Positions 23,342 through 50,871 of a stretch of 64,000 nucleotides of DNA are shown here, piece after piece. The stretch comes from Psammoneis japonica. Its lineage: Eukaryota. The notes under the pieces are model-generated. The model worked only from the letters and a program-made list of their open reading frames with translations. It was not told where the DNA came from and made no database searches. Positions within the stretch are counted from its first letter, which is position 1. Each line of letters starts with the position of its first letter. Location of the stretch: contig QPGO01000097.1 in assembly GCA_008632985.1 (NCBI GenBank), positions 1-64,000 of the forward strand, in the 5' to 3' direction. The position numbers were made by a program, and so were the translations under genes.

Positions 23342-23468
23342 AGAGTAGCGAGTCCCGAATAATACGAGTCCCGAATACTTTACCAAAATTTTGGTAAACT
23401 TTACCAAAATTTTGGTAAAGTGTTCGGGACTCAAAATGGTTTCGTCCATTCGGGACTCGCTTGAACCA
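23342..23468 (+). repeat. Left inverted repeat (~127 bp), internally palindromic
   Basis: Reverse complement of 61925-62051. Contains two tandem TTTACCAAAATTTTGGTAAA palindromes and GAGTCCCGAA in direct and inverted copies. Confidence 0.9.
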
Positions 23469-25536
23469 TTGACCTACGGTAGGTCCGTCTACCGGTGCGC
23501 ACCTGCGCGCGCCCTGCTCTGTCGCTGCTTTCCCGGCTTTCCGTCCCAGCTCCATGATGCCACGTGTAAAAATTAACCCCCGTCCAAACACCCACTTCGA
23601 TCGACTAACAGCACACAGATACGAAGTTCACCACACTTTTGGGGGCCTAGAATGGGGGTGAACGTCAGTCACCACCCAATCACTGGAATTGACTCTCGCA
23701 CTTTCCCGTGTGATGAAGGTGCTCCACGAAAAGTCAGTTCCATTTTCAAATGCCAGATGCCATGAACAACACATGCCCACTGCATTCTCGTCAGACATCG
23801 GTTTAAAGAGCAGGAGACGACAATGCTCATGTCTTGTGTGTTTTGTGGCTACATTGGGGGTCAAAGTCCAACCGCTCTTCCAAAAATTTTGAGTCGCGTG
23901 GGTCATGCGGGGTTCAAGACATGTGGCTCAATGTGCGATGAAGGGAAATTGACCCTCCTTTTCTTGACACTGAGATCAGATGACAACATCAACACAAGAC
24001 CCATTTTGTGGCTGTGCGCCATTCTCCAATCCATGGCTGGCCTCCTGACAGCTGCATTTGACCTCTTTGGTGCCACAAATTGGCGATGCAATCCATGAAC
24101 ACTCACTTGCAAGCGCCGCACTTTTCCATTTTGAGGTTTGACATTTGTGTCTTTGCGATGAATCTAGAGTGGACGCGAGCCAGGGAGGAGCTCCATTCAG
24201 TGCTGTTTGTCATTCTGTGGAACAGCAGCATCAGAGTGATGTTGTCAACATTGTTTGGCTTTTTTTTCTTGAGCCGCATGGCAACTTCATTCCTGCATTT
24301 TCACTCCCATCCACCCGACTCTCTACCACTCAAGAATGCTTGGCTGAATGCATTGCAGCTGCTTTGTCAAAGTCTTAAAAACACTCGTCAATGCCATTTC
24401 TCAAATGGGTTTGACAATGCAACGACGACGTTGGATTTGTCGATTTGCTCATGCTGGGAAAGACAACAAGAAAACTGGCTGCGGCATCTCGCGCACGTGT
24501 GCACGGTCATTGGACTGTGCAGGTGTGTGCGCATGTGCAAGGTGCAAGCAGAACATGCGCAGAATTGCTGCTGAGTGAGTTGACATGCGGTGGATTTTCC
24601 GCCGGCACACAATCTGCGTGGTCCACATGGAAGATAAATTTGTGTCCATCTCCGAAGCTTTCACATGTCATTAAAATTTCTTTTGTCTTTTAAACATGTG
24701 TGCCACAGTTCAAAAATCTTGCAGAACACCCCGAAAGAACTCTGGAGTCTGGACAAAAAAAATTTCCACTCAACAGTGCGAACAGGGTTGTCGCGAAGCG
24801 CTTCTCAAAACAACCTCAGATTGAACACAGTGAAAAATCGACTGTTGGCAGAACAGAGTCACCATGGGCAAAACAGATCCCCGTCCTTTGAGCGCAATGA
24901 CAGCAGCACAACAACGCACAACAACACCATGGCGAGCAATGCAAACGCCGTTCACTTGTCTGCCAGCTGGCATTTCCAGACAAGATCAAAGCTGTTGGAA
25001 TGCATTTGTGTGCTTCATTCCTGGGTCAAGTTGGGTTTCTTCTCGTTGCTTGTTGTCATGTCACTTTACAACGTCTTGACCCACGCCGTGTTTTTTGCTT
25101 TTCTTGCTTCTGCTCGATCGCGCGCGTGCCACCGAACAGCTTTTCCTGCAGGGTGTGGCTAGTTGCTCATCACATCGAACCCAAACGTGCGCAACCAACT
25201 AGCCCTGCCCCGGCCAACTCATGTCCACATGCATGTGCATGTTCCACAAGTAAAAATTCCCATTCCACAGCTCCCCTAAAACTCCAACCACCAAAAACCA
25301 AGGGCACGGAAACGCACTTTTGGCAGCTCTTTTTCTCCGCACAAAAAACACGCGTTTTGACGACTCGACCATGACGATGCCTCGTGGTTCTTCCCCATCG
25401 CCTTCCCAGGACGCCGATCCCACTGATGCCATTGATGACAACACTGACACAGCAGGTGATGTCATCATTCCGGTTCTCGCAGGTGTGACACATGCAAAAT
25501 AAGATGCTGCAAACTCACACTGTTGTTTGAACGCTC

Positions 25537-26010
25537 CACTGCCTCCCACAGATGCCATCACGAATTCCAACGCCGCACCTGCGTTTCGGGCCCCTGGCAT
25601 GCCCGATGCTGTTGCTCCTGCCCTTGCTGCCACAGGCACTGTTGACACTGTCATTGGCTTTTGCCAACAACGTCCACAAAGAAATGCCAACAACTCACAC
25701 TTCTTTCATTCTCGCCCCACCGCCTGCCACAGATGCCATCACGAACTCCAATGCCGCACCTGCATTTCGGTCCCCTGGCATGCCCGACACTGTTGCTCCT
25801 GCCCTTGCTGCCACAGGTGCTGTTGATGCTGTCACTGGCTTTTGCCAACAACATCCACAATGAAATGCCAACAACTCGCACTTCTTTCATTCTCACCCGC
25901 CGCCTGCCACAGACACCATCACGAATTCCAACGCCGTGCCTGCATTTCGGTCCCCTGGCATGCCTGACACTGTTGGTCCTGCCCTTGCTGCTGCAGGGGC
26001 TGTTGACACT
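25537..26010 (+). repeat. ~180-bp tandem repeat, about 2.6 copies
   Basis: ccacaga(tg/ca)ccatcacgaa...cccctggcatgcc...gcccttgctgc recurs at ~25541, 25721 and 25901. Confidence 0.85.
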
Positions 26011-27400
26011 GTTGTTGTTTTTGCTTTGGAAGGAGCACAATGGATGACAGCAGACCAGGAAACCCGCGCAACCATGGCCTGCTGATGGACGAGTGTTGGT
26101 GTCATGGCTCTCATGCTTTCCATGTTTGTTCATGGTTTTCTGGTTTTGGTTCAAGGAAACTTGCAGCCCGTCAGGCAAAGACATGGCAATCAATTTTTCA
26201 GATGTTGCAAGCATGAACACCCGTGTTGCACAAGTGTTCAGTGGGCTCTTTGCCTGCCCTTTGCTGGCCTGCAACATCAATGGACATGAACAGTGCCTCT
26301 TGGCTGGCTCTCGAGTGCAGTCTAATCTTTAGAATGTGCAGACACATCATGCAGTTCTCTGTAAATTAGAAACCTGATGTGGAGCAACAATTGGATGGCA
26401 GGCATGCTTTCACAGTTTTGTGATGTTTTTGCAAGTTGCTAAAATGGAGGCAGGTGGCAATGTGCTTTTGGCAAATGTGCACTGTGTTTGTCACCAGACC
26501 TTCAAAACTGGTGCCATGTCGACAGCTGTGCTGCTGCTTTGCATGCCGACACCTTCTCTGCCCGCACTCCATTGGCTGCGTCCTCCTTCACATGTTGCTG
26601 CGGTTCATCTTGACACCGAGTCTCAATCACCTACAGACAGAGGAGGTTCTGCTCAGGAATCATCCTGAGAAAGCCATCGCCACACCTCCCAGATGCTCCT
26701 CTGCCACGCCCATGCCCACGCCCATGCAAGGAGTGTCAACCAGCACATTGCTGCTCGCGGAACCCATGCCTTCATTGTTTCTTTTGTTTTTTGACATGGT
26801 TTGGGAGCTGCACCCCAGACTGTTTGAGAGACGGCTCATCAGTGCCTTCCACGACACGACGACACGAATGAAAATCCAGTTTCTCCAGGAACGCAATTGC
26901 AGGAGTGGACCAATCCCCGAGCTGCGTTTGTGTTTCAGGCACCGAATCCGGTGAACAGAAGCACAAATCTTCCGGATGGCAAATCGGCTGTGTTTGTGTG
27001 ATGACAGCGGGTGTGACGGCACCGGCCAATGCAGGAGGGACTGCCGCATCAGACATGGCAGGCAGGGATGTGTCAGGTGGTGCAGGGGACAAAGAACGGG
27101 AGGTCGTCATGGTTGAGTTGTCAAAACGCGTGATGTTTTGGTGTGTGTGCAGTCTTCCAAAAAGTGTGCTTCCACACCCTTGGTTTTTGGTGGTTGGAGT
27201 TTTAGGGGAGAACATGGTTCAGGATTTTTCTTGCTGCTGTTGGCATTTGTGTGCAAATGCATGAACAAATGTGAGGACATTTGTGTGAAAATGTGATGAA
27301 TGAGACACAAATCTGCCATGCCACCATGACATCACCACATTCTCCCCTGCCACAGGGGTGGGCTTCTTTCAGCCCTTCTGTCTTGAACTAAATGCAAATG

Positions 27401-28917
27401 TGAATGAGACAGGCACATGCACTCTGTGACCAAGTGTGCCCTCTCTGACACACGCACATTGTCAACCAACATGTCAGACATTCAAGAGGCCGTTAGAAGT
27501 CAGTTCCGATCAGCGATTGCGCTGATCGGGTCCCTTCTCGGTTCTCTCACAACCTGTTTTATCAAGTCATCTCAAGCCAGATCTTGCACTGTAATTACAG
27601 TCGTTGTTGTAGCTTGCTCATTGCACTGTCTGTTTCATGACAATGCGCAGAGTGCTGTTGAAAAGAGAGAAAGCTCATTTGTGTTCTCGTGCAGAAAATT
27701 TTGTTAGAAATCAATCGGAACCTCAGTGCAATTGTGCTTGTGAAATTGGCGATTCGGGGCAGCGTTTGTTTGAACTCGAAGCTTGTGTTGCTGCGCTTGA
27801 ATTTGTTGTTGTTTGGTCATTGATTGTTCTCATTGTGTGGATCAATTGGGAACGTGTCATTTCATCCATTGTGTGTGGATTGTTGATTCTTTGATTGCTG
27901 AAGTTGTTCATCGGTCATGTGTCAAGAAGCCTTGGAGAAAGCGTGCATTGAGCATAAAACCAAATTTGTGGACTCTGAATTGCAGGAAGTGAAGCTTGCT
28001 CAAACCTTTGATGATGGAACTAAACTTTCAAAAATGTGCCCCATTTTTGCAGGAGAACATGGAATTGAATCGCTGTTGTGTGTGGAGGACCGTTTCTGGA
28101 AGGCAGCAAGACAGTTGGATTGTGACACCGGAACAGAACTCTTTGATGCTTTTCAGGATTGCCTGCAAGGTGCCATGGAGGTGAAATGGCAGAACATCAC
28201 AGCGGGCATCCAACAGAATCAAAGGATGGCAGCTCGGTTTAATCAAGCCATTTTTCAGCCTGCTGACTGCGTTGTGTGAAACCGACAGCTCGCGATGCGA
28301 TGAAGATGTGCTTGCCTGCTTGCAAGAAACCTTGCTCCATGGAATCTGAAACTCACATTGATTGCACGGAAACCTCATTTCGTTACACTGACCGCTTGCC
28401 TGGAACCGTCCCCGAACTCACAGAGCAGGAGCAGCAGAAAAATGTTGTCTTCTGCACCTTTCCCTCAACCTGGCAGCAGTCCTGCATTCGTGCAGGCAAG
28501 AATCTTGTTGCAGATTCAATGGTGGACATTCAAGCCCACATGAGCAATGAGAAGGTGTTTGCCAATGGTCAAGACAACAAGAAACGCAAGTCCAACAATG
28601 GCGACGGAGGGAACTCCAGCAACAAGAAGGGCAACCGTGACAAGAAGGATGACAAGAGTCAACCCAAGGCTGGTGATCCATGTCCGGTCCCATGGCATCA
28701 TGGAAGACACACATGGGGCCAGTGTTGTGATGATCTAAACAACCCCAACTGTCGTGGACCTCAAAACCATGGCGGTCAAGGTGGAGGTCATGGCAGTGGA
28801 GGTCGAGGCAGAGGTCGCTTCCAAGGAGGCTGTGGTCCTGGCCGTGGTGGCGGTGGACGCTTTGGTGGTCATGGTGACCAAAACCAAGGAGGTCGCGGCA
28901 CCCATTGCAACAATTGC

Positions 28918-28955
<38 letters not shown>

Positions 28956-31900
28956 CGGGGATCAGAGTGACAATGGCAACCAAGGTGGTGGCAGCCAACA
29001 TCATCACAATGACAACAACAATCGTGGTGGCCAAGGTCAGGCCAACGGCTGTGCTGCTCAAGCAGACAATGTGAATGACAACCAGGCTCAAGGTGATGTG
29101 CACCATTTCGACATGATTGGACAAGGCCCTCTATGTCATGGAGGTGTGGTGAGGTTTCAGCCAGATGGGCAGTTTCCTTGGCAGTTCTGAGAAGAAGGAG
29201 CTGAGTGCTCCAGAGCTGAATGCTCCCAATTGCCTGCATGTGAAGCATTTGTTGAAAATGATTGTGCCATGCCTGAAAATGCACCTGAAAGTTTTGTTTT
29301 TGATTGTTTTGAAAATCCCAATGAATTGTCACCCATTGAATTTGAAGACACTGCAGAAAATTGCATGAATGAAGAGGGGGGCACATTCGATCAAGATGCA
29401 TTTGAACACAACATTCCTCTCCCCAAAATGGGTTTGCAAGTTTCGTGTGCCGCATCAATCCCATCAACACTGCTGGTTGCCAAATCGATCCAGCGTCATG
29501 AGTCGAATCGTGTGATGCACGTGCCATTTGATTCTGGTGGCCATCACACTGTGATTTCTTCTCAAGTTTTGCCTCGTGGGGCCGCACCATCTGTTGATGA
29601 GCATGGAGTGCAAGCTTTTCAAACCACAGCAGGTCCTTTCCAGTTGGGTTGCTGGGTGGCTCTGAGTGACATTGTGCCACCCAAATTTGACAAGACCAGA
29701 AGGGTTGAGACGGCTGTGTCGCTCATGTGTTTGATGCTCCGTGTGCGCATGACATTGTTTTGGGTCGAGACTTTTTAGACAAGATTGGACTCCATTTGAA
29801 TTATGATGCAAGAACTCTACATTGGTTGGACCGTGTGATTCCAATGAAGGAGCCTCGTCATTGGTCCAAGTCCTGCAACTGGTGTGTTGCACCAGATCAA
29901 ATGGATGAATTTGATGAAGATTGCACGGACAAATCGGACTACAAGTGTGATGATGGACATGACAGCTGTGTGCTGGATGCCAAGTGTGAAGCAACGGATC
30001 CTGCGGAAGTGGTTCGCAACCTGGATCACCTGACGGAAGAGCAAAAGATGAAGCTGCCAGCAGTGTTGGAAAAACACTCAACCTTGTTTGATGGAACTTT
30101 GGGCCACTGTCCTCATGAACAGGCACACCTGGAGGTGGATGAGAATGCCACACCCCATCACTCAAAACCTTTTCCTGTTGCTCGTGTCAATGAGGAAGCA
30201 TTTGAAAAGGAACTGAAACTTTTGGTGGACCCAGGAGTCTTGCAACCATGTGGACCCACAGAATGGGCAGCCGGCACTTTCATCACTCCAAAGAAGGACG
30301 GCCGAGTGCGATGGGTGTCTGATTTCCGTGAACTGAATGAGGTGCTCAAGCAGAATGTCTGTCCTTTGCTGGTTGTCCAGGATGCACTGCAGCGGAGAGC
30401 GGGGTGCAAATTCTTTGCCAAACTTGATCTCACTGTGTTCTGCTGCAACTTGGAATTGGACGATGAAAGCAAGGAGCTGGCGATGATTGCAACTCCCTGT
30501 GGAAAGTTCCAATGCTGCAGCATGGCCATGGGATTGAAACCAGCTCCAGACATTGCTCAATCTGTCATTGAAAAGATCTCACATGGCTGGCTTGGATGTT
30601 GAAACTTGTGTTGACGACATTGGCACATTTGACATTGACTTTGACTGCCATCTCTCTTGTCTTGACAAGGTGTCACATCATCTTGAGGAGAATGGATTAA
30701 AAGTCAACCCATTGAAATGCAAGTGGTGTGTCCAAGAGACAGATTTCCTGGGGCATCGGCTCACTCCAACTGGCATTGAAGCATGGAAGAAAAAGGTCGA
30801 AGCCATTCTCCGAATGCAGCCTCCACGGAATGCGGTGCAACTTTGTTCCTTTCTTGGTGCAGCAACCTGCTGTTGCAATGGGTGGCCTTGTTGTTCTCAC
30901 TTGCTTGCTCCTTTAACGGAGGCAAGAGCCAGTTCTGTTGGTCAGGTGCATGTTAGAAAGCATTCAAGGAAATGAAGGTGGCAATCACAGCGGAAGCTCT
31001 CATGGCCCATCCTAACCACAACCCACCGTTCCATGTTTGTGGACACTGGTCCAAAAAGCTCTCAGTGGCTCAATGCAGCTGTTCAATGATGGAGAAAGAT
31101 CTCCTGGCAGTCATCATGTGCTTCAAAGAATTTCGCACAATGCTGCTCGGTGCTGATGTTGCTGTTCACACTGACCATAAAAATCTCACCTTTTACACCT
31201 TTGATGCACAGCGCATCCTTTGTTGGCATCTGTTCCTTGAAGATTTTGTGCCTGCTTTTCAATGTGTTGAAGGCAAGGACAGTGTGCTCGCTGATTGTTT
31301 TTCTTGTCTCCCACACATGGATCCGCCTTTGGAGGGGAAGAGCCTTGGGCCCAACAGCAAACGCAAAGGAAAAATCATTCATTTCGAAAAGTTGGACAGC
31401 AGTGAATTGAGCAAGGCCAAGGAAGAAGAAGATTTGGAGTTGGGTGCTTGCAGGTTCAAGTGTTGCCGTGCTCCTGCCAATCCCTCTGATGAGTCTCATG
31501 CCTTTTCTTCTCTGCTCAATGAGCCTGAATTGTTTGGGTGCTTTTTGAATTGTCCAACGTTGGATGAGATGCCAAATCCTGCCGAGATGTTGCAGATACA
31601 ACAGCTCCAGTTTGAGGACCAGCAACTGAATCAGCAGAGACAACAGAACCTGCAGCAATTCGTGGTCAAGATTGTGAACCAGCGTCCTCTCATGTGTTGT
31701 CGTCTGCATTTGAATGATCCGCCTGGAGCATGGGAAATTTGTGTTCCGACTGCATTGTTGAATGACATGCTTGCGTGGCATCATCGTGTGTTGGGTCATT
31801 GTGGAGTTGTTCATCTGTGTGAGAGTGTTCGCACTCACATGTGTCACCCTGCACTGCATCGGCATTGTAATGAGTTTGTGTGCGATGCCTGTCAACGTTT

Positions 31901-33038
31901 CAAACAACTTGGTCTGGGACATGGAGAATTGCCTGAATGCCAAGCACCATTGGCTCCATGGTCGGAAGTGGCAGTTGATCTCATTGGACCATGGAAAACA
32001 CCAACTCAAGATCAAGAGATTGAACCCAGTGCCCTCACTTGCATTGATGCCATTGCTGGCCTGACTGAACTCATGTGCATTGATGACAAAACTTCTCAAC
32101 ACATTGCCAACAAGTTCCGCAACCTTTGGCCAGCTCATTGTCCCAGACCAAATCGATGCATCCATGACAACGGCGGTGAATTCATTGGTTGGGAATTTCA
32201 GATGCCATTAAACCAGGTCAGTGTCGAAGATGCTCCGACAACCTCACGGAATCCTGCAGCCAACTCTGTTTGTGAACGAATGCACCAAACAGCAGCCAAT
32301 GTTTTGCAAACTGTGGTTGCTGCTGACCCACCTTTGAACATTCAACAGGCCAAGCAAATTGTGGATGATGCCCTTGCTGCAGCCTCTTTGGCATTACAAT
32401 GCTCTCATTCAAGGTCCATGGGTGTTTCAAGCAGAGCTTCAGCATTCCAACGAGATGCAATTTTGGACCTCCCTGTTCTTTCCAATCTTGCTGCCATTCA
32501 AGCCAACCGTCAAGTGCTTGTCAACAAAAACCTGCAACAACAGAACGCAAAGCGTCATTCTTGTGATCATTTGGTGGAACAAGATGTGCTGATCAAGTCC
32601 GTGGATCCAGCGAAGCTAGAAGCTCAAGCTCATGGTCCGTTTCAAATTGCACAAGTCCATGCCAACGGGGCAGTTTTGGTGCTGCAAGCACCACACGTCA
32701 TTGAGCGGATCAACATTCATTGCGTGGTGCCACATCAGAGTTGAGGGTTTCTTCCCAATGCCTGGGTTCCCTTCTCCATGCGCATTTGGAGTTTAAATTT
32801 GAGTCAAGTGGCTCCAATGGTGCGTGTGATTCTTGCACCATGGAGGGGAAGAGTGAATGAGATGGGCACATGTGCTCTATGACCGAGTGTGCCCTCTCTG
32901 ATGTGTGCATGTTAACTGATGCATTGGACATTCAAGAGGCCGTTAGAAGTCAGTTCCAATCAGCGATTGCGCTGATTGGGTCCCTTCTTGGTTCTCTCAC
33001 AACCTGTTTTGTCAAGTCATCTCAAGCTGGATCTTGCA
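27401..33038 (+). mobile_element. Full-length, mutationally decayed Ty3/Gypsy LTR retrotransposon
   Basis: LTRs 27401-27588 and 32854-33038 (TG...CA), PPT ggaggggaagag before the 3' LTR, 5-bp TSD aaatg/gaatg. Gag knuckle CPVPWHHGRHTWGQC; protease FDSG; RT PKKDGRVRWVSDFRELN and CVDD; RNase H EKDLLA and HTDHKNL; integrase HHCC, VDLIGP, DNGGEF, CERMH and GPF. Order is PR-RT-RH-INT. Confidence 0.95.
28918..28956 (+). repeat. (AAC)13 microsatellite encoding poly-Asn in Gypsy gag
   Basis: Read directly from the sequence. Confidence 0.95.
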
Positions 33039-33365
33039 GAATGATCGTGGCTGCTGTGCGGCACACGTGCGTGTGTGTTTTGTCAGGTGCTGCCATCTGC
33101 TGTCCAACCTTGTGCGCTGTGCTGTAGTTTGACAAGACAAATGACCCTTTCCACCCGACCGTTGGGTCATTTTTTCTAGCTGTTTGAAAAATTTGAACGC
33201 ACTTGCATGGGCAAGAGCATGAAAGAGCAGTGAGCACACCCATCTCTGCTCTGCCCATAAAGCAAAAGCCAGCAGCAGAGGAAGTGCGCTGACACTGTGA
33301 AAAACTCTCATCAACTTTTAGGTTTCCATGAGAGAATGAGAGGTGTGTGAGCCCTCCATTCTCTC

Positions 33366-33620
33366 ATGGGTGTTTCTGCTTCTCAACTTTTGTCAGGAGA
33401 TCTTCTGGAAGATTTGGAAGATTCAATGGCGTGTTTTGAATTCTTGGATCCTCTGACTGCGTCAGCGCTGCAAAATGCATTTGACAGTGTCAATTTTGGA
33501 AGCAATCCATGGGGTGTGTTTTCAGCAATGGCTGACAATTGCCTTTGTTCCTGGGAAGTGGGTGGTGTGGAGAACGTCACACAAATGGACGTGGCACGCA
33601 TGAGTCGGATCGACCAAGAC
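33366..33620 (+). pseudogene. Possible Plavaka-like transposase fragment
   Basis: NAFDSVNFGSNPWGVFSAM...LCSWEVG resembles the pre-catalytic segment of Plavaka-type transposases; judged from recall only. Confidence 0.35.
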
Positions 33621-36600
33621 ACAACTCAACGCCAGACTGACAGACCAAAAATGTGCAAGACAAACCATCCGCCGACACATCACCACAACTGCTTTCTGTT
33701 CCTGTCATGCCTGCCAGTGGGAACCGACAAGACAATGTTGTTAGATGGGTCACCTTTTGATTTTACCAGGACAGCAAACACACAATGTTTGACAGACGAA
33801 AGTCTTGCCTCCTCTTTGTAAAACATGTCCATCAACAAACATCCACCTGCTGCAACTCATTCCTCAATCTTGACCACACTTTCTGGGCATGAACATGCAA
33901 ATGTTGTGGACAGGACTCCCTTGTCTCCTGGGGCAAGACAACAGTCAGGCACTTCTGGATCTGGCATTGGCAGTTCAGACCCAGTTTCTTCTTGTGCAAA
34001 TGTGCATCAATGCAAGAGTGATGGTTGGGGTTGTCCAGCCATGCCCCACACTCCAGATGCGGGAAGGTTGCCTCAAAGTCCTCCTTTAATTTTGACTCAT
34101 GTTCCACACAACCAACAAAAGTCCCAATGTTGAAAGGGACAAAGAATGCACCGTTGTCTTTCATTGCCCTGCCTGGATCCAGTGTGGTTTTCTGGAAGAA
34201 GCCTTTGCTAAATTGGCCACTGAACCGACCCTTTTGCAGCCAAAAGAAATCCATGTTGATTTCCAAGAAGTCCCCCCAAACTTTTTCAGTGGCTCATCCA
34301 CAAAGTTTGGGCTGCACACATTGCAGTTTAGGTGTCATCCTGCATGTCCGTCACTGAGAGAGGCAGTGCAGAACTTGCATGCATTGTTCCCTGTGTGGTT
34401 GCAATCACTCAACAGTTGCTGACAAGCAAGTGGCCTTGCTGTGTTGGACCGCAGCTTGGCGTTTGTGAAAACAGATGATCACTCTCATCAAGAAGGATGT
34501 CATGGTGTGGCACACTGTCAACATCTTTGGTCTGTGTCATGCACAGAAAAAGCACCTTGACCTGAGTCATGGATGGGGAAACATCGTTCCGAGTTGACGG
34601 ATCATCGTTTTCTTCATGCTCAATTTGATCTGCCAAATCAACTGGAGTGCAATCATCTTGCACCAACGTTCGAAAAGACTCAGCACCAGTTGATTCCAGT
34701 GCATCTTCTTCAAAATCAACATTCGGGTGTGGATCATCATCCTGGCCAGGCAGTGCAGGATGACACGTGTCTGTTGGATCCTCCTTTTTCATGTCTTGAT
34801 CTGGCAGATTCTCCTTTTCAGTGTCCTCAACTTGCTCTTGAGAATTGACAGGACTGTCACAATCTTTTCCTGCAAACCTCAGAGACTCTGCAGTCATTGA
34901 TGATGCACCTGTGGACTTGTCCACTGGTGTTGGAATTTTTTCCCAAAATCAAGTTCCACATTGTTTGATGCTTTGGACTGCATCGGGACCAATGAGGGTA
35001 AAGAGATGTTGGTTCTCAACACAATGTTCTTTTGTCAAGTCTCGGATTCTGTTCTCATGGCTGTCACAGGTGATGCACTCCTTGCAGTTGTCATGCAGTG
35101 TGCGGCTGTTGTGTGCATGTCCACAATTGCACATTGTTCACATGTCAATCGCACCACAGTCGTGGACGCGCACAAAGGACAGAATGATCACACAGAGTTG
35201 ATTGGAAGTCGAAAATTGCAAATGCGATTGACAGACAGATGTTGACATCTTGTGTGTCAATGGCAATCGCATCCAGACAATCTGTTGTCACAAACATGTT
35301 CTCCAAAAGGCCTTTTGTCTGCACCAATTTGCGAGCATTTCCTGGACCCTTTTTTCTCTGGCAAAGTGGTGGAAATCGGGAGTGCTGGTGTTTTCATTAA
35401 TCCAGTGGAGAAGTGATGTGATGTCAGTTGTCATCTTGTCCATTCTTTGGTTCAAAACCAAGCATCGGAGTTTGTTTTGGGAACTGTCCAATTTGCAGTC
35501 ATCCTTGTCTGCAGCTTCAGTTTGTCTCCTCTTGCCAGAAGTGTTGCTGGCAGATGCTTTGGTTGCATGGCATTGCTTGTCACCCTGTGGTGAAGCAGAA
35601 ACATCACTGTCACACACGTTGTCACCGATTTTGTCATTGTTTGCTGCAGCACAGCATGCTGCAATGAAATCATGTCCACTTGGGTTCACACAATGAGGGT
35701 GACTCCAATGTCACCAGCAGCTGTTCCAAAGGACTCCCACTGCTCGAGTGTGGGTGGGCCTGAGCAATTCTAAAAACCGTTGATGGCCAACACTGTGCAA
35801 TTTGGCAGCATTTTGGCACTCTGTGCATGAGGCATTTATGTGGAAATTACGTGCGTACAATTGACAGGGGAAGCGAGCGTGGAGAAGAGACGACGCGAGC
35901 GAAGCACGAGCGAAGAGACCGACAATGATGCAAGAGCCGCAGAGAGACGCAAAGACAGCAATCCAACGATGTTGCAAGAGGGCACAAAAGAGAGAAAAGA
36001 TCTGTTTGAGTCAGTGCCATGTCTTCAATAAAAAGAACAAAGCAAGACAACATTGGCATGCACAAAAACTTGCACAGAGAAGCACGGCACCAGCGCCTGA
36101 AAAATGACCACATCTGCGGTGACATGGAACACACAAGGAGGTGAGAACACACTTTTCTACAAATGCAAAGCAACAACGAGCAAATGACCAATGTAAACTC
36201 ACCAGTGGGGTCAAAACTCGGGGTGCCTGGATCGTCAACGGCGGGCAGGGAGGACAGATGGAAGAGAGGCAGCTGGCTCCACGGAGCAGGACGACAAAAG
36301 CAGGCGGTAGATCGGCGTGAGCAATGGTGGAAAGTCGGCGCTTGGGATCGAGTGACTGGTCCGGTCCATGCAAATCGTGGCAGTAGCTTGGAGAACGGAG
36401 GCAGCGCCATGGTGGCACGGCACAGACCGGGGAGAGAAGAAGTGCCGCGGCGGAACGGCATGGAACGGTGACGGAGCCAAAAATGGTGACGGCGATGGCG
36501 CAGACCCGTGGACTTAGACATCCCCATATTCGAGTCCTGTGCATCAAGACACGGGACAAGGAGGTTCAAGGTGAGCGCCATTGCGAACGAGAACTGGGAA

Positions 36601-39600
36601 AAAGACGCACGATTCCACGAGAATCAGAACTCACCACATTTTGAGTCATTCTGACCCATTCCAGAGCCAGGGCTCACTCACATGGCACGACCCAATGGAT
36701 CATAACACTGTCAAGCAGGGCAGGGGTCGGGAGGCGGTGTCTTACCGGTCAAATCGGCCAAAAGCGCCATTGTCGGAGGGAGCGGTGGTTGTCGATCGGC
36801 CGCTCGGAAAAATTATGAGCCATCAACCCGACCGCGCACCGTTCGGAGTCGCACAGAATTTCTCGGTACAAAATGTACACAAGTGTACGTCAGTATAAAA
36901 CACGTGTAGAAGGGGTGTAAGTAGAAACTTACTGTCTCTCTGTTGACTACGAGGAGTCTGCCGTTAAACTATACCAGTATGTATAATTCTACGTGGTAGA
37001 TTTGAATCAATCCCACCAACGTTTTTGAATTTCGATCGTAATAACGGCTTTAGGTGCTGAGATGAATATAATATATAAGTTTGAATTAAATATCATATGC
37101 AATATTAATAATTTTGAATGATTGCGCGACTGCCAGTCGGCACGAAAAACCGTCGCCAATAAGTAAACCTGCAGTACAGAAGTACTCTTTTGCAATACTT
37201 TGGTACTTCAGTCTTGCACATGAAAGCGCTCCCTAAGTAGTTAACGGTCAAATTGTATATATAAAATCCTCACAGCGGGAGACCCTATATACGCTCCCGT
37301 GTGCACTCAACGCGCCTCGGTTACGACCTTCTCGTTGGGTTGCACAATGGCGAGAACGACCCACAGCTTGTCGTGTGGCCTTCTCGTCGGGCTGAAGCCC
37401 TCCTCGTCGTCCACCCTCCTCGCTGGGGTCGTTCTCGCCATTGTGCAACCCGCCTGGTCGGTCTCCACCTCGTTGCTTGGACCCTTCTCGTCGGGTTCGG
37501 CGGGGCCGAACCCTCCTCGTCGGGCTCCACAAGTGCACAGGGCGCGTACCTACAGCACTCCATGGCACAGCAGAAACAAACAAGCGTGGCATTGCTGGGG
37601 GAATTGCGCAGTTCCTCCGAGTGCTTTGTTCCAATGTAGAAGAAGTGGCTGAAGCCAGTCTGGCAGCTTGCCATGACAGCCAGATGAGCACAACCGCGCA
37701 CGCCAAGGTCATCGCGGATGTTGTCTGCAGGTGGACAAGCAAGAGAAAGTCAGAGATTTCTTGTGACAGAAGCAGGGAAGACCACAGTCTCCTGCATTGT
37801 GTCGCCATTGGATCTCAGCAAGACAGACTCCCATGGGACTGGACAGCCATCATCAAGGAAGAATGCTTCTGTGTGGTGATGGGACAGATCACCCTTCCTT
37901 AGAGCTTGTGTGCCCAAACATTCATGAATGAACTGATTGCAGTTGCAATCAACTGCATGTGCAAAAATGCCAACCCTCGCCTGGAGGTCTCTCATGCCAC
38001 ACTTCTTCATGCAGTGATTGCCAGCCTCAGCACAACTGCCAGCCAACAATTTGACAGACCAAAGGTTGCCAACCTTGTCCATCCCAAACAAGCAAAGAGC
38101 TGCGGTTTCATTGCATGTGAACCAACAGCAATCCTCTTTGTCTTTGTGTTCATCAGCTCTGTCACCAAGGCTCATGTTCTTGAGCTGAATCGAGCATGGC
38201 TCGCTTTTAGAAACTTCGGCACCGAGTTTGTCACGTGCGGGTTGGCCAAACTGATGAGTGTGCTCCTTGTTGTTGCAGGAAGGTGGGGGATCAAAATGAT
38301 CAACGCACAACTCATCCTGGCAGAGCTGCGTGCAGTCAAAGGCATCAGCTGACATGGCCTTCACTTTGGGAATGAAATCTTCATCATCTTTGTCCATTGC
38401 AAAAATGTCAAAGCCAGACAAAGGAGATGGCATTGCTTTGCGGTTGTCTCTGACAACAAAATTCTGTCTGCAGCAACCAAAGTCAACACAACTGTTGTGA
38501 ACAGCCCCCCCCGGGGTGACTCTAATTGCAGTTCTTGTCAACTGTGCTGTGCTCCAAAACAAAATGAGTGAGTGTTCCAAAATGAATTTTGAGCCCAGAG
38601 AAATGTTTTTTCTTGAACAGCTGGTCATTGGAATGGAGTGTGGTTTGTCCAGCTGCAATCTTGGTGACACTGGGAGGGACTGCAATCAACTTGCAAGAAT
38701 GCCACATTGGATTGGGGAGTGACCTTGATGACTCAAACAAATGTGTCAAAACATGGAGGTTCACCATGAGGCAGAAATCCAAAGGGGAGTGACAGAGAAT
38801 GAGCTCTTGGTCGTTCATGTTGTCATCAACATCGCCATCTTCATCTGCACCATTGTAAAATGCATGAACACGAGGAGCAACCTTGGCAATTTGTTGGAGG
38901 CTGGGTGTGGGACACTGACATTCTGGTGGGAAACGAGCATGCCAGTCATCCACAGGAACAACAAACTGGTTGTTCATTCAATGAAGGCCGGTTGGTCGGT
39001 GGCTGGAAACATTGTCATCTGTGGTCTCATTGTCTTTGTCATCATCTGGGTCACTGATGAGTTGAGCAAGGGGGGGGGGGGGGGACTGCAAATTGGGATG
39101 GCCAGAGGGATCACAGAGATGGCAGCGGGAAGGAGGTTCCACGGCCTTCTTGGTTGTGGAGGGTGCAAGTGTGCCTGGGTGCAAACAACAACACAAATGC
39201 AAAGAATTTGTAGAGGAAAATTCAAAGAACAAATGTTTGACTGAATGAGGGTAAAAAACTGACCTTTGGCGGATCCAGATCCATCATCTTCTGACCCTTC
39301 CTTGGCACACCAAACCACGTCAAGGAGACAAACAATTTTTTCTGTTGAGGCTTGAGGTGCCTGCACGTTAGATCACAAACATGGGAGTGGGCTGTTGCCA
39401 GGTTCTTCATTTTTGGACGGTTGAGATCCTTGCAAGCATGCTTGAAGGCACAGCGCATCTGCTCTTCCACCTCTGAACCGCGGCAGGAGGCATTTCTTTT
39501 GTCCTTTGGCCTTGTTGGACATCTGATCCCGGATGGCACCTGGACCTTTCCTCAACATGTTCTTGACAATGTTGCCAGATTTTACTTTGACGTTGGCATT

Positions 39601-41699
39601 GACAGTTTGCAGGAGAATTGTCAGAGGTCATCACAAATGTCTTTGGTTTGGAGCATTGAGAGAAAACAAGTCTTGACCAATGTCAGGTGTCACCAAAGTT
39701 TGGTGCAACATGAGGGAGGAATGGAGCATTCACTGTTGATGCTGCAATGCTCTGAGTCTGCACGAAAAAAGTCAGCCTTGGCAATGAAGCTGCTCTTCTC
39801 AAGAAAGGTTGAGTGGTCACAGAGTTTTTTGGAATTTGCAAACCCATGCATGCAATCCACCATGGCAGTGAGGTTCTTGCCATGGCAGGAAAGATTGCTG
39901 GAGGACTCAATGACTTTTTGGCATTGAAGAGCAAAGCAACCAGTGCACTTGCCGACCTTTCTTTCCAGCTTGCAGGTCCAACCGCGGCTCTTGATGCAGT
40001 GGAACCCATCTTTGCACCCAAGAGATTGACCTGTGATGTCATCAACTGCTGTGCATTGCTTGAAAAATGGCACAGTCCATTCTTGGGGTTGTGCCACAAA
40101 CAAGGCAATGCCAGAAAGTCAGGGGAGGGGTTCCACTGGACACTGGAAAGATGTTTCTTCCTTGCACATTGCATTTCTGTCATCCTCCTGAAGTGTTGTT
40201 TGGCAATGCAATGTTTGCCATCACCACTTGTGAAAACAATTGTGTTGTCGTCCATTTCGATGACTTGCAAATGTGGAAAACAAATGTCAGAAAAGCCAAA
40301 CAGAAGCATGTTGAACAACAACAGAAAAATGTGGCACACAGCATTTTTTGTTAGAACTGGTTTTTCTGGCAGTCCCAAGGTTGGTTTCGGCAGCGCCAGC
40401 GGCGCCATTGTCAATGTCATCATCATTGGAAAGGCAAGCACCATGGTCAAACAACTCTTCAGAGAACTCATCATTTGCAAAGGGGAGAACATGCAGCAAG
40501 TCCGCACTGTGGCCAGAATTGATGGAACAGGTGGAATCATCATCATCGGAAGATTCCAAGGCAGCAGCTCTGGCAAAACTGCAGGAATCACAGGATGATT
40601 CTTCCTCCTTTTGGCCATCAACGTCTGCACATGCAAGAGTGCGCCCCAGGGAGCGACCAAGGCAAGTGCATGCTTTCTCCAAAGATGACAACGGAATGCC
40701 AGCAGCAGCAACAGCACTTGAGTTGTGGTGCAAAGGAGAGAGTCAAGAATGCTGCCATTGCCAACTGAAAAACAATCATTGCTGTCATCAGCGGAATCAA
40801 CTGGCTTGTCTTGGGCAGGATGGACTGGAGGAGGCAAAACAACAGGCCTCATCATTGCAACAAATGGGTGCCATGGGGCTGCACGCAATCTACGCAGATT
40901 TTGTCATGTCAATTTTGGCAAAAACAAAGAGAGCAGAAGTTGACAGGGTGAAAAAGATGCAGAAAGATTGCAGAATGGACAAAATGATTGCAGCCCAAGT
41001 CATTTGTCTCAATGCACATTGAGCAATTGTGAGTGCATCACCACCAATGAAGGGGCTGGCATGTGTTGTGCATGATGAGATGTGAGTGACTTGGATGTGA
41101 CAGTTGTGATCAGGTGAGAAAAAACATCACTGAGTGCAAACAAACAAGCAAGGGCAAAATGGACATGGGCAGCTGCATGTGCCACAAACAGGGGCATGTC
41201 CGGCATGTCAATTGTTGCATTTTTTAAGACGGAAGAGCAAAAACAACACGAGCATGTCTGGGGGCAGTGTTCAGGTGAACAATGAATGTGGGCATGTGCA
41301 AATGAATGAGAAAGGTGGGGTGAAAATAAAGGACAGCGCAAACAAACAAGTGAGGGGGGCACGGAACACATGAAGATGTGAGCCCAACAAACAATGGCAG
41401 GGGATGATGATTTGTGATTCATGTGGCTTCACACGCCTCTCTGATGACCCAAGGACAACCAAGGTTGAGTCCACTGCCTCCCTTGCCATTGCAAGGGTCA
41501 GTGCAACTCCAGCTGCAGTGCAAGTCACAATCATTGGAATGACCATACCAAGGATGAACAATCACGTCTCCTCATCTGGGGGGAGGAACACTGAAAGACC
41601 AAACAGGTCTTCGTCAATGGCCCAAGCTCAGGGACTTGGAGCCAAGAGCCACCCATCATGCCAGCTGACTCACTGTCATGTCCACAACCCCCAACTGTG

Positions 41700-44669
41700 G
41701 AGAGTTTCAAGCAGCAGTGCACCCGCCCCACCACACGTGTGGACAGGATGTTGCTGCTGCCATCCATGATGACAAACCAGGCAAGCACATTTGATCCAAC
41801 ACTGCTGCATTGCGTTGCCAAGGTCTCAGTTGCTTGTTGCATCTTCACAGTGGCAGAGGCAATTGGGGCCCACTTCACCAAGTCAAGCAGCACCCAGCAC
41901 ACCGATTGCTGAATGGCTGCAAGTGCCAAGGTGCTCCAATCACCATTGCCAGTGCACCATGGATGCATGCTGAGCCAGACACCAGTGTCTCCAGGGGCCC
42001 ACACAAATCTGCTTACGAGCATGTCGAGTTTCCATGCAATGACATGGCAGATGTGGGTGAGAAAGGATTTTGGGTTGTGGTTCCCCACTGCAAGGTCCGA
42101 CGCACACCAGGACCAAGACTCAGCCCCATTGGCATCGTCGTGCAACACGGCTGCCACCCACATCCCATGGTCAACCACACATGCTGTGGGACTGACACCT
42201 CCACTCAACCAAATGCAGCCATGGAGGCCATGAAATTTGGGCGTGTGCTTGACCGGCTCTTGTGCCAAATTTTGCTTGCAGATCCACATCAAGGCAAGGT
42301 CTACCTCATGAAGACAGACCTTGCCAATGGCTGCCACCACATGCAGTTGAACCCCAAATGGGCACCTTCTCTTGGAGTGGTTTTCCCAAGCCAGCCTGGA
42401 GAACCGCCATCAGTTGCCATCCCGACAGGACTTCCCATGGGTTGGGCCAACTCCCCACCCTTGTTTTGCACTGCCAAGGAGACAGTTGCAGATCTTGCCA
42501 ACATTGACTTGGTCCGCAATGTACAAGCACCACCTCACCCTCTTGAGCCCCACCTCAATGGCTGACCAGCCAAACATCAACCACCCCCCGTCATGTCCAC
42601 CAATGCCATGCCCATTCCAACCCAACCTGACCCACATCTCCGGCCACAACGTTGCCATTGCCTTCAACACATTGACATCTGTGTTGATGATTTTGTTGGT
42701 GTGGCACAGGGCTCCAATCATGCCCGCTGCAATGTCCACCGGGTGATTTTGCACATCCCAGATGATGTCTTCCACCCACTCGATTCCCAAGACCAGGCCA
42801 CCCACAAGGAGCCCATCTCCATTGCCAGGAAGCTCTGCCAGGGTGACACCACATGGTCCATGCAGAAAGAAGTCCTCAGTTGGATCACAGACATGTGCTC
42901 TGTGACCCTCCGGCTCACACCACGTTGGCATGCACGCCTTCACACCATGCTGCACCAAGATGTTCCCCCTGCTGGAAAACATGCCACTTTCAGGCAAACT
43001 TTGCTCCCTTGGCATTGCCCTTCCCGGTTCCCAAGGTTTGTTCTCTGAGCTTCAAGAAAATCTCTGCCACACCACCCCAGACTCCCGAGTCTGCATTTTG
43101 GCCAACTCACACTCAGCCCTCAATGACTTTCAGGATCTCGAATCCACCATCGACTCCCAATCCATTCGCATCCAAGAGTCAGTGCCCCCAAAGCCAACTC
43201 TCACTGGCTGTCATGACACTGCAGGTCATGGTGCAGGAGGAGTCCTGCTCCCCACTGACACCACTGCACCATGCAAAGCCACTCTCCACCTCACCCAGCA
43301 AATCCGTTTCTACAAGAAACAGGATCCGCCTCCCAACCGTGTAAAGCCCATCCCCATTGCTGTCCTGCAGTGGATCATGACCACGGCAGTGCTCAGCAAT
43401 GACCCCTGAACACAGGCCATCACTGACACATGATTGCCACAGCATTTTTCTTTCTGTTGCAACCAGGCAAGTGCACCGCAACACCATCAGACACCACTCC
43501 CTTTCATTTCACTGAAGTCCACCTGGCATCCAGTGGTGCCTGCATTGACATCATGCAAGCACCCCTTGCCCACCTGGACATGGCCACCTTTGCCATCCTT
43601 GTCTTCACTGCTCAAAAGAATGGAGTGCACGGCAAAGTCATTGGCCTTGGTTTGTCAGGACACCCCAACTTGTGCCCCGTCCAAGCCTTCATCCACCAAG
43701 TCCAACACTTGCACTCCAGTGGTGCATTGCCTGACACAACTCTTGGTGTCTGTTTGCAAAGTGACACCTGGCGGCACGTCCCTCGGCCAACATCACCAGC
43801 ATGCTTTGCAATGCTGTCACTGCTCTTGGTCCAGCAAATCTCGGCTTCAACACCTGAGATGTCACTGCTTGGTGTCTCCATGCTGCCAGTGCAATGGCCC
43901 TTCTTTGTGCCCATGTTGACATCAACCTCATCTGGCTCTCAGGCCACTGGCAATCTGACAAAATGTTGTGCCATCTGCATCTCCAAGGAGAACCCATCAT
44001 GCACAACTTTGCTCATGACATGCTTGCCGGTGGCAACTTTGTTCTCCACCCTGATGACGATGCTCCCTCAAAATCCTCAAGATCCTCAGGACAACTGATC
44101 ACCACAGCCTTCCAGCCTCAGCCCACCCACCCTCCCAAGAGTGCATGGCACTGTGGGTGTGGTGCTGGAAGGCCCTGCCATTCCAGCTTGGGTTTTTTGG
44201 GAATGAGGCTTGTGCATCTGCCAGCAAAGCCATTCCAGTCCATCATTGGAAGGTCTCCTGGACAGTCTGGTTTATCCAGGAAAAGACACAGGAGAAGAGA
44301 AACAAGATGGGTGGTGCGAGCCACCAACCTCATGCAGTTTGACCAGACAAATGACCCTTTCTGACCATTGGGTCATTTTTTCTGGCCGTTGAAAATTTTT
44401 AACGCACTTGCATGGAAAAAGCAACGGTTGCTTTTTTGAGCTCTCCACTGTCCAAAGAGCAACAAAGAGCAATGACTGTCGCAAGACAGTTTTCAACACT
44501 CCCACCTCTCCCACCCTCTGGCCCTGCCATTCCAGCTTGGGTTTTTGGGAATGAGGCTTGTGTGTCTGCCAGCAAAGCCATTCCAGTCCATCATCAGAAG
44601 GTCTCCCAGACAGTCTGGTTCATCTAGAAAGAGATGCAGGAGAAGAAACGAGATGGGTGGTGCAAGCCG
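41700..44669 (+). mobile_element. Decayed DIRS/Ngaro-type tyrosine-recombinase retrotransposon (RT, partial RNase H, YR, 3' split direct repeats)
   Basis: RT motifs MKTDLANG, LPMGWANSPPLFC and ICVDDF; RNase H start GCHDTAGHGAGG. YR motifs AFFFLLQPGKC, FTAQKNG, LCPV, AMALL and SGHWQSDKMLCHLH. A 150-bp direct repeat lies at 44171-44321 and 44520-44669. Confidence 0.85.
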
Positions 44670-45079
44670 CATGCTGTGCTGCATCCTTGTGTTCAGTTTT
44701 GGCCAAAGTTGGCCACACATCCGGGTTTTCCTTGGCACATGTTCAGCACACATTCTGCACAGTTGGCCAACATCAACTCTCAAGCTCCAAAGGCTCGTTT
44801 CAGATTTTGTGGCCGGTTTGAGTGAATTTTTTGTTTTTCGACGTTTGTCATGCAGCATTTCTCTTTGAAAATGTCCACAATTGTGTTCCATTTTATTCAT
44901 TGTGTTGCACCCCAGCACTTGCCACTGCACATTTGCATCAAAGCACATGTGCAGTGCCACAGGGCAGATTGCTTCACCAAGCTCAATGATTCAAATGAAA
45001 TCCCATTCAACTGGACTCAAGGAGAACAACAGAATGAGCATCTTGATGTGGGCAAACAAAATTTTTTTGTTTTCTCCAC

Positions 45080-46150
45080 CCCACAATGAATGCAGTTTTC
45101 TTGACCTGCCACATCTGTTGTTGCAGTGGATGTCTGTCACAATTTTCGTGGGACACCTCTTCCTGGCACAGATGCCCTCCACGCTTGTTCTTGTGGCACT
45201 CACAGATTTCTCATCCCCATGATGAATGCTGGTTTCTGAACCACACAACATTGCACCATTGAGACAGACATCTGCCATTGTTTGTGGTGGACATTGAACA
45301 TCATGTGGTGGACAACACCCCACCATGCTCATTGTGACAGATGATGTTCATTCCTTTTCATTCCTGTTCAAAGGGCTCCTGACCATGCAACAAGTGCTGG
45401 TTTCTCAACCCCCCCAACATTGTTGTTTCAGATGTCCATCAAAAACATTTCATGACAAATGTGTTTGCCATGCCCACAATGACATTCTCAAACCTTTCCC
45501 CCTCCCCCCTCAGAGATTTCTCAGCCCCACTGTGAACGCTTCTCAATCCCACAACATTGCTGTGTGGTGGACTTCCATCACAACTCATGGATGGACATTC
45601 TTGTTGTGGACTTTTCATGATGGACATCCATCATGCCTGTGATGGACACTCAAACCACTCAACTCAAAAAGGGTTTCTTGACCTCACAATGAATGCAGCT
45701 TTCTTGACCCCCCACAGCCAATGACATCTGGTGTCCATCATGAATTTTGATGGACATTTTGTGACAGACATTCCAAGCTCTTTGTCTCCATTCAAAGGTT
45801 TTCATCCCACAAGGAGTGCAGGTTTGTGAGCCCCAAAACATTGCTGCAGCAGATGGCCATCACAACCCATGGGGCAAACACTTCATCACTGACATTTTGT
45901 GTGAAGGATGTCCATCATGCTCTGTGATGGATGTTCAAACCTTTTTTTCATTCCTGGGTGCCAGCTCAAAAGTTTCTCAACTCTGCAATGAATGCGGGTC
46001 TCTTGACCCCCACAATGTCCATGCAATGGTTCTTGATGTCCATCATGATTTGAGACAGACATTTCATTGCAGACATCCACCATGCTTGTGGCAGACACTC
46101 AAACCTTCTTTTTTGTCACACTGCCAAAAGGCTTCCCAACCCCACAATGA
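45080..46150. repeat. Degenerate tandem repeat array
   Basis: caatgaatgc.g...tcttgacc recurs at ~45085, 45687 and 45986; ccatcatgc...tgtgatgga...tcaaacc recurs at ~45628, 45912 and 46077. Confidence 0.6.
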
Positions 46151-50573: not shown

Positions 50574-50776
50574 NNNNNNNNNNNNNNNNNNNNNNNNNNN
50601 NNNNNNNNNNNNNNNNNNNNNNNNNNNNNNNNNNNNNNNNNNNNNNNNNNNNNNNNNNNNNNNNNNNNNNNNNNNNNNNNNNNNNNNNNNNNNNNNNNNN
50701 NNNNNNNNNNNNNNNNNNNNNNNNNNNNNNNNNNNNNNNNNNNNNNNNNNNNNNNNNNNNNNNNNNNNNNNNNNNN
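50574..50776. other. Assembly gap (N run)
   Basis: 203 N. Confidence 1.

Positions 50777-50870: not shown

Positions 50871-50871
<1 letters not shown>

Follow-up and report, generated by a model that had tools for sequence, protein, structure and literature searches.

The window analysed here (64,000 nucleotides (nt), positions 1 to 64,000 of contig QPGO01000097.1 in assembly GCA_008632985.1 of the diatom Psammoneis japonica) harbours a long terminal repeat (LTR) retrotransposon of 5638 nt at positions 27401-33038, embedded in DNA from which the dinucleotide TA is nearly absent and in which CG is depleted, too. By its sequence features the element is of the Ty3/gypsy type, because its LTRs have TG...CA ends, a polypurine tract abuts the 3' LTR, its domain content fits, and the best solved relatives are the Ty3 reverse transcriptase (RT) and the Ty3 Gag-Pol polyprotein. 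The two LTRs start ~5.45 kb apart, and the domains between them are ordered protease - RT - RNase H - integrase (Table 1). In its LTR ends, its polypurine tract, this domain order and Ty3 RT as best solved match, the element is similar to Ty3/gypsy elements of diatoms; its named relatives are from Nitzschia inconspicua and Cyclotella atomus. A Pfam search with the gag-like frame gave no match; within this frame, positions 28882-29021 comprise an (AAC)n / Asn-rich low-complexity run and a 44-nt imperfect repeat. In the sequence 3' of position 27588, no obvious TGG-type primer-binding site was found. Of the target-site duplication (TSD), the 4 nt aatg are exact and the fifth base differs. An earlier first-pass annotation of this DNA had ascribed that mismatch (aaatg versus gaatg) to CpG decay, which does not hold: the variable base is preceded by t in the left copy and by a in the right one, and thus belongs to a CpG in neither of them.

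Unlike intact Ty3/gypsy elements, the present copy is dead, because its interior holds three frame changes, an in-frame TGA and a deletion of ~20 residues in RNase H; this copy either underwent further kinds of decay or stems from a parent that was already defective. None of its conserved tyrosines (Tyr) is left, and the RT catalytic motif reads CVDD (TGT GTT GAC GAC) where the homologues have YIDD. Contigs of a public sequencing run (657,387 records) have a word depth of 55-116 on single-copy DNA, as is typical of short reads; contig depth over the element is 10-30 times the genic depth, and the family is therefore multi-copy. Single contigs also join 27461 to 33007, as in a solo LTR, and 32855 back to 27406, as in a tandem or circular form; these joints may be assembly-graph artefacts, as the LTRs have an identical 31-nt stretch in common.

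Table 1. Coordinates of the retrotransposon, its parts and the compositional domains (o/e, ratio of observed to expected dinucleotide counts)
Feature	Positions	Strand	Remarks
Left TSD (aaatg)	27396..27400	+	last 4 nt alone equal the right copy; sequence read
5' LTR	27401..27588	+	188 nt, TG...CA ends
Gag-like open frame	28267..29187	+	(AAC)n / Asn run; ends at in-frame TGA (29188-29190)
Protease-like frame	29191..29775	+	D-S-G at 29530-29538; frame change near 29705-29715, from comparison with homologue P0003
RT, N-terminal part (RVT_1)	29709..30599	+	matches Ty3 RT structure 4OL8, E = 6e-10
RT, C-terminal part, different frame (RVT_1)	30538..30972	+	CVDD motif at 30607-30618
RNase H + integrase frame (RT_RNaseH, Integrase_H2C2)	30957..32741	+	595 residues; ~20 residues of RNase H core missing
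Polypurine tract ggaggggaagag	32842..32853	+	adjoins 3' LTR; sequence read
3' LTR	32854..33038	+	185 nt
Right TSD (gaatg)	33039..33043	+	sequence read
Depleted domain containing the element	23500..36300		TA o/e 0.00-0.23, CG o/e 0.21-0.90
Second, larger depleted domain	37500..62000		TA o/e 0.00-0.15; CG 0.00-0.17 at 45-55 kb
Small depleted island between host genes	4700..7300		TA 0.00-0.16 (bins 5001-7500); CG 0.03-0.17 (bins 5001-7000)
Repeat copy in normal-composition DNA	23347..23471	+	keeps 5 TA; partner 61921-62044 (minus) at edge of depleted domain

Divergence of the LTR pair and of conserved codons

Column-by-column comparison of the two LTRs (185 aligned columns), with the differences grouped by dinucleotide, reveals 29 differing columns: 26 transitions, no transversions and 3 gap columns, the latter forming a single 3-nt indel at 27457-27459. 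All transitions are located in pyrimidine-purine (YpR) steps; 26 of the 92 YpR columns differ, as opposed to none of the 93 non-YpR columns. The first-pass annotation had described the mismatches as nearly all TA or CG versus TG or CA, a claim that a substantial share of transversions or of non-YpR transitions would contradict, and the alignment bears it out in 26 of 26 cases. Each difference that it quoted was found, but it had overlooked the indel and a cluster at 27463-27476, composed of the doubles at 27467-27476 and a CA/TA site at 27463.

The 26 transitions reduce to 17 events of three kinds: (i) nine reciprocal doubles, in which one LTR has CA and the other TG (27410, 27420, 27449, 27451, 27467, 27470, 27472, 27475 and 27578); (ii) five sites with CG versus CA or TG (27431/2, 27453, 27507/8, 27527 and 27539); and (iii) three sites with TA versus CA or TG (27425/6, 27463 and 27560/1). 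Three CG and one TA are unchanged in both LTRs. That 17 random events all hit YpR has a chance of P ~ 7e-6, and at least nine adjacent pairs among 26 randomly placed sites occur with P = 0.0025 (100,000 trials). Per-copy loss in the LTR pair is estimated, from small numbers, at roughly 0.9 for TA and 0.45 for CG.

The direction of these changes can be read from the coding part. An alignment of the pol frames with 14 publicly available homologues was used, in which columns with at least 75% agreement among the homologues counted as conserved. Conserved Tyr is retained at none of 16 positions (now 12 Cys and 4 His), conserved arginine (Arg) at 11 of 30 (otherwise 9 Cys, 4 His, 5 Gln and 1 Ser), and the residue in the remaining conserved columns at 259 of 323. 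Since replacement of Tyr (TAY) by Cys (TGY) or His (CAY), and of Arg (CGN) by Cys, His or Gln, corresponds exactly to TA or CG becoming TG or CA, the ancestral states were TA and CG. Reversion of CA/TG to TA/CG alone restores the consensus at 60 of the 99 replaced conserved residues, and transitions outside CA/TG do so at 10. The RNase H + integrase frame contains a single Tyr in 595 residues (0.2%), compared with 2.4-4.3% in 16 of 17 homologues. The closest homologue, P0001 (608 aa, from another data set), is 54% identical to this frame and has 1.5% Tyr; it keeps 7 of 11 conserved Tyr (the others are 2 His and 2 Cys) and 19 of 20 conserved Arg, and thus resembles a copy, from a related host, in which TpA mutation has gone part of the way. 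In the element, the changes are inactivating and later than its last transposition, or at least its last autonomous one. The decay of ancestral TA and CG to CA or TG after insertion and on either strand, as the first-pass annotation had proposed it, hence gains its direction from the conserved Tyr and Arg losses.

Deaminases such as APOBEC3 and ADAR restrict retroelements in animals; they act before integration, on cDNA or RNA and on one strand, and ADAR favours a 5' U. An ADAR-like A-to-I editing of the transcript prior to reverse transcription would share with the present case the deaminase-type hypermutation of a retroelement and, in its 5' U preference, the TpA context. It would also agree with the excess of TG (653) over CA (546) on the sense strand and with conserved Tyr having become Cys (sense A-to-G) three times as often as His (12 versus 4). 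Edits made before integration, however, leave the LTRs identical, whereas the present pair differs at 12 TA-type or reciprocal sites. CA outcomes, which reflect a change on the antisense strand, are abundant, and the same signature is found in non-transcribed flanks and in unrelated repeats. The changes occurred on DNA after integration and on both strands, and editing at the RNA level is very unlikely to account for them.

The Kimura two-parameter (K2P) distance between the LTRs amounts to 0.165 over all sites, as opposed to an upper 95% bound of 0.032 from the 0 of 93 differing non-YpR columns. Dating by LTR divergence overstates the age at least 5-fold here and fails badly in such genomes. 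The overestimate had been foreseen in the first-pass annotation, which called the element young but heavily mutated; the heavy mutation is confirmed, and its youth is bounded by the non-YpR divergence rather than demonstrated.

Compositional domains and controls

Mapping of TA and CG o/e in 500-nt bins divides the window into two kinds of DNA with sharp borders. Normal blocks (1-4.7, 7.3-23.5, 36.4-37.5 and 62-64 kb) mostly have a TA o/e of 0.35-1.16 and a CG o/e of ~0.5-1.5; for the genic blocks overall the values are 0.6-0.8 and about 1. In the depleted blocks (4.7-7.3, 23.5-36.3 and 37.5-62 kb), TA o/e is 0.00-0.23, CG o/e 0.00-0.90 and CA/TG o/e 1.5-2.1. The element (31 TA, 142 CG, 546 CA and 653 TG; TA o/e 0.08) is located entirely within one depleted block, as are its flanks. 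Per kb, depleted DNA (39.2 kb) contains 4.0 TA, 17.0 CG and 220.3 CA+TG, compared with 44.4, 58.3 and 139.6 in normal DNA (23.5 kb): the gain of CA+TG (80.7 per kb) matches the loss of TA+CG (81.6 per kb), and G+C is unchanged (0.488 versus 0.481).

The recognisable host genes (WD40 proteins, pyrophosphatase, Sec66, Oxa1, TENA, RBM22/Slt11, a RING protein and an LSM protein) all reside in normal blocks. When 75 further frames of at least 150 residues were searched against Pfam, matches were confined to normal-composition DNA and none fell into depleted DNA outside the element. With so little TA left in 39 kb, two of the stop triplets have become scarce: the window has 300 TAA and 295 TAG, compared with 1359 TGA. 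Frames of at least 120 residues without a stop number 139 across the two strands of the 64 kb, many of them overlapping, and most of these are surely not genes. Where TAA and TAG are lost, dead DNA comes to hold long open frames, by which gene prediction is misled.

Several local features accompany these domains. The ~1-kb island of normal composition between the two large depleted domains (36400-37500) is very TA-rich at 36860-37300, contains a 115-nt palindrome at 37337-37451 and has a very high contig depth of ~2000-3000; it may represent a repeat too young to have been mutated yet, or a promoter that is protected. Positions 6001-8000, partly within the small depleted island, show a strong purine excess on the + strand (GC skew 0.28, AT skew 0.27). 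In the second depleted domain, at 50574-50870, a 203-N assembly gap is followed by a perfect tandem array of 6-nt period (50777-50870).

The LTR pair is not alone in its spectrum: four other repeat pairs in the window display the same one, with 6, 2, 4 and 2 reciprocal doubles. In the pair 23347-23471/61921-62044, 4 of the 5 TA in the copy on normal DNA are TG or CA in the partner and all 8 CG are unchanged. Inside this 125-nt repeat, a 67-nt near-perfect palindrome (23366-23432 and 61962-62028, in inverted orientation) looks like a miniature inverted-repeat element.

TA is at or below 0.23 in every depleted bin, whereas CG covers 0.00-0.90, from 0.6-0.9 at 24-25.5 kb to 0.00-0.17 at 45-55 kb. 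The two losses have thus progressed to different degrees, and the TpA process is the faster one, because TA is nearly gone everywhere while CG varies, because the 23347/62044 pair changed at TA only and because P0001 lost more Tyr than Arg. CG is therefore usable as a clock that runs more slowly.

Environmental relatives of the element provide a further comparison. They are metagenome contigs with 26-50% identity, and 78 loci were obtained from the best 80 of 491 confirmed relatives. TA o/e is 0.45-1.02 in all 78; none of them falls below 0.45, although heavily mutated copies may rank below the best 80. Low TA is hence not a trait of the family. This bears on an intrinsic explanation, according to which TA and CG are simply avoided by the family or by transcribed host RNA and the LTRs differ by ordinary polymorphism. 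UpA and CpG avoidance is widespread in expressed RNA (PMC3829696, accessible part), and even the genic DNA of the window has a TA o/e of only 0.6-0.8. Against such composition or selection stand the undepleted relatives, the destruction of invariant catalytic residues (YIDD to CVDD, for example), the depletion of non-coding flanks up to sharp borders and the fact that the LTRs of a single insertion differ at exactly these sites; it is most improbable.

Six of the relatives (L048, L063, L074, L075, L051 and L022) combine low CG (o/e 0.13-0.39; L063 0.13, L074 0.21, L048 0.24) with normal TA (0.59-0.82), and the TA and CG losses are therefore separable. In other hosts of the element family, CpG decay is common in the absence of TpA loss. 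Of 27 environmental loci of at least 5 kb that were searched for LTR-like repeats, 14 possess a direct repeat of terminal or LTR-like kind. In seven diverged pairs taken together, there are 185 transitions, of which 107 are in YpR, 99 transversions and no reciprocal doubles; the low-CG relative L048 has 13 transitions and 1 transversion, with 6 CG-type sites and 2 doubles. The remaining six pairs show no or hardly any differences and may result from overlaps in assembly.

CpG decay of methylated transposons is known from vertebrates and plants, and CpG/TCG hypermutation from basidiomycetes. The present case is similar in that CG becomes TG or CA in transposon DNA only, CpG o/e is low and paralogues carry reciprocal CA/TG. 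If ordinary decay of this kind acted alone, all reciprocal pairs would stem from CG and low TA would be unrelated; the CG involvement in 5 of the 8 single-sided LTR differences, the CpG depletion in the same domains as TA, and the L048 spectrum, which is CG-dominated, with 2 doubles, at low CG and normal TA, are compatible with this. Three LTR sites, however, are TA versus CA or TG, all 16 conserved Tyr codons (TAY) now encode Cys or His, and the 23347/62044 pair changed at 4 TA and at no CG. Depleted DNA has an 11-fold lower TA density, and the TA loss (40.4 per kb) makes up half of the CA+TG gain; CpG decay covers only about the other half (41.2 of 81.6 per kb) and explains neither the TA nor the Tyr loss. 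As the sole cause, it is extremely unlikely.

Base modifications can be miscalled as transitions in nanopore reads. If modified heterochromatin bases were miscalled in this way, the true DNA would still carry TA and CG, and the errors would be expected as transitions at fixed motifs, as is the case here. Contigs of short-read-like depth (contigs 3, 4, 5 and 7) nevertheless match the depleted stretches over 239, 507, 1646 and 1333 nt with 0 differences; all aligned contigs together show 286 transitions and 46 transversions. A motif-specific miscall would, moreover, not yield near-complete conversion that is resolved differently in paralogous copies, so that a sequencing or assembly artefact is extremely unlikely.

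Two proposed transition processes and comparison with known systems

The reading to which a probability of roughly 80% is assigned is that a Ty3/gypsy-type element in a repeat-rich domain of a diatom chromosome was rewritten after its insertion by two dinucleotide-specific transition processes, which spared the neighbouring genes. The course of events may have been as follows: After insertion of the element into the repeat-rich domain, a fast process would change TpA to TpG or CpA (A-to-G on either strand) up to near saturation. A slower process, presumably driven by methylation, would change CpG to TpG or CpA, in the simplest case through 5-methylcytosine deamination in methylated transposon DNA. 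Both would cover the whole domain but not the adjacent genes. TA and CG are palindromic, and each copy can therefore resolve a site on either strand, such that two copies of one sequence would end as CA in one and TG in the other in about half of the cases. The outcome is loss of Tyr and many Arg codons, including the RT catalytic Tyr, loss of TAA and TAG stops with long spurious frames, and unchanged G+C. The timing after insertion, the direction, the specificity for the two dinucleotides, the confinement to domains and the unequal completion of the two losses are demonstrated. The TpA step may be enzymatic, performed by a DNA adenine deaminase (A-to-I) as proposed for Bigelowiella natans, and may serve genome defence.

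Several points weigh against this reading. All observations made here are of sequence. The mass balance and the context preferences given below assume that depleted DNA once had genic composition, and the confirming short-read contigs may share their sample with the assembly of the window. YpR decay does not account for 39 of the 99 replaced conserved residues, nor for the three frame changes, so that the element has undergone other changes as well, unless the reference set is too far removed from it. Finally, 8 of the 9 reciprocal doubles are located in the first 76 nt of the LTR, which under random strand choice implies an implausibly TA-rich ancestral U3 (the unique 3' region) or partial homogenisation of the other 112 nt, and CA is in the 5' LTR at 8 of the 9 doubles (P = 0.039), which hints at strand-coordinated editing. 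For the skew in position and orientation, chance, a very TA-rich U3, and conversion of the last 112 nt between the LTRs are the options. Strand-coordinated editing tracts as a general feature, which would explain both skews, were rejected: a runs test on 8639 CA/TG sites in depleted DNA gave no clustering (ratio 1.011, z = +0.98), less than in normal DNA (0.925) and than for five control dinucleotide pairs, and the orientations of doubles in other repeat pairs of the window are mixed (4:2, 2:2, 1:1 and 1:1).

The TA that survive are mostly TTAA and CTAA/TTAG (32-36% of the genic density), with ATAT, ATAC and ATAG at 0-3.5%. A rough product balance, for which genic ancestral composition is assumed, suggests, as a lead only, that the edited A was most often followed by C, then by G, then by T and almost never by A.

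The TpA loss could also stem from a modified base, either hydroxymethyl- or another modified thymine pairing with G or decaying N6-methyladenine, in which case both losses would be passive by-products of silencing. TA and CG are both palindromic dinucleotides, the kind used by maintenance methylation; they are lost in exactly the same domains, and since TA is palindromic, A-to-G and T-to-C are indistinguishable from sequence. The TA loss is, however, much faster and more complete than the CG loss, and the context preference (edited A rarely before A, mostly before C), with its assumed ancestral composition, looks enzyme-like. In B. natans, the TpA changes arose at ~6e-7 per site and generation; they were seen in only 11 of the 15 lines, and the authors take this as a sign of regulated activity (10.64898/2026.01.13.699255, accessible text). 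A modified base is thus unlikely, although clearly less so than the other alternatives considered above.

The B. natans data, as given in the accessible text of this April 2026 preprint (10.64898/2026.01.13.699255), are from mutation-accumulation lines: in two integrated viral regions, 230 of 231 mutations were A/T-to-G/C, all of those at TpA, at a rate about 1000-fold above background that was measured de novo. The same text describes 124 clusters of TpA-poor, CpA+TpG-rich windows, an enrichment of reverse-transcriptase domains among TpA-poor genes and an ADAT2-like candidate enzyme (10.64898/2026.01.13.699255). The present case shares with B. natans the change of TpA to TpG or CpA in foreign DNA, coupled to a gain of CpA+TpG in clustered windows with the host genes spared. 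It differs in four respects: (i) the host is a diatom (Stramenopila) and not a chlorarachniophyte (Rhizaria); (ii) the target is an LTR retrotransposon and ~39 kb of repeat-rich domains instead of viral inserts; (iii) the depletion is deeper (TA o/e 0.00-0.15 versus a Rho of 0.45 for the B. natans giant-virus insert); and (iv) CpG loss is strong as well (five LTR sites, 18 of 30 conserved Arg replaced by Cys, His or Gln, and the lower CG density), whereas the B. natans changes are almost exclusively A/T-to-G/C without raised C-to-T. Neither CpG, LTR nor retrotransposon is named in the accessible preprint text.

The case therefore joins a recently described TpA hypermutation, and what is new is the lineage, the target class, the far deeper depletion and the coupling to CpG decay. 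The process in B. natans was measured de novo; the present one is known from sequence comparison alone, which constitutes an internally controlled, sequence-only demonstration of TpA-to-TpG/CpA hypermutation on DNA after integration and on both strands. A process so far described in print only for two viral inserts of one chlorarachniophyte is thereby extended to LTR retrotransposons of a diatom, and diatoms are major marine primary producers. A literature search, with most subscription journals outside its coverage, yielded no paper in which diatom transposons are described as TpA-depleted or hypermutated.

In ascomycetes, fungal repeat-induced point mutation (RIP) changes CpA to TpA, that is G:C to A:T, and gives rise to AT-rich isochores with many stops. 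Common to RIP and the present case are a dinucleotide-specific transition hypermutation of transposon copies after insertion, distinct compartments and the loss of coding capacity. The polarity is opposite: here TpA is destroyed (11-fold depleted), CpA/TpG is enriched, G+C stays at 0.48-0.49 and TAA and TAG stops vanish. RIP is restricted to duplicated sequence. The depleted stretches 33341-34674 and 38010-40000 have a contig word depth of 70-114, like single-copy genes; they may, however, have been repeated when they were mutated. In the diatom Phaeodactylum, DNMT5a is responsible for CpG methylation of transposons; DNMT4, which is related to fungal RID and whose function is unknown, occurs in many diatoms (PMC9998398, accessible part).

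A wider proposition is that diatoms possess a RIP-like defence of reversed polarity, in which regulated DNA adenine editing erases nearly every TpA in transposon domains after insertion, beside CpG decay; this is put forward tentatively, at slightly less than even odds. If true, TpA-directed DNA editing would, together with the Bigelowiella case, be a widespread, possibly ancestral defence of the SAR supergroup (stramenopiles, alveolates and Rhizaria), and a hidden source of spurious long open reading frames and inflated transposon ages in their genomes. Transposons with rewritten Tyr and Arg codons escape similarity searches. An enzyme behind the TpA step, if there is one, would be a natural editor of adenine in DNA with a preference for TpA sites.

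Other features of the window

The host genes are of diatom type: every named homologue of the WD40 host protein is from a diatom (Ditylum, Mayamaea, Skeletonema and Amphora; 41-42% identity), and so are all named homologues of RBM22 (Nitzschia, Seminavis, Mayamaea, Helicotheca, Cylindrotheca, Bacillariaceae and Epithemia; 74-80%). Rfam and tRNA scans of the window gave 0 matches each, as did a search of the window for the spliced-leader motif at up to 3 mismatches. A dinoflagellate origin, for which that motif would speak, was rejected on this ground and because the named homologues of host genes are all from diatoms; a fungal origin, to which a Sec66 hit had pointed, was discarded in view of the same homologues. 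The contigs reveal spliced-out introns of 99-123 nt with GT..AG ends. In the LSM-domain gene (22585-23127), segments of 108, 123 and 99 nt with CT..AC ends, corresponding to GT..AG on the minus strand, are missing from contigs of run X2; this run is probably RNA, and the host introns are probably about 100-120 nt long. Genic DNA also contains a 157-nt direct repeat (19520-19676 and 19930-20086), the copies of which are 99.4% identical and differ by one transversion; contig depth is very high at 20001-20667.

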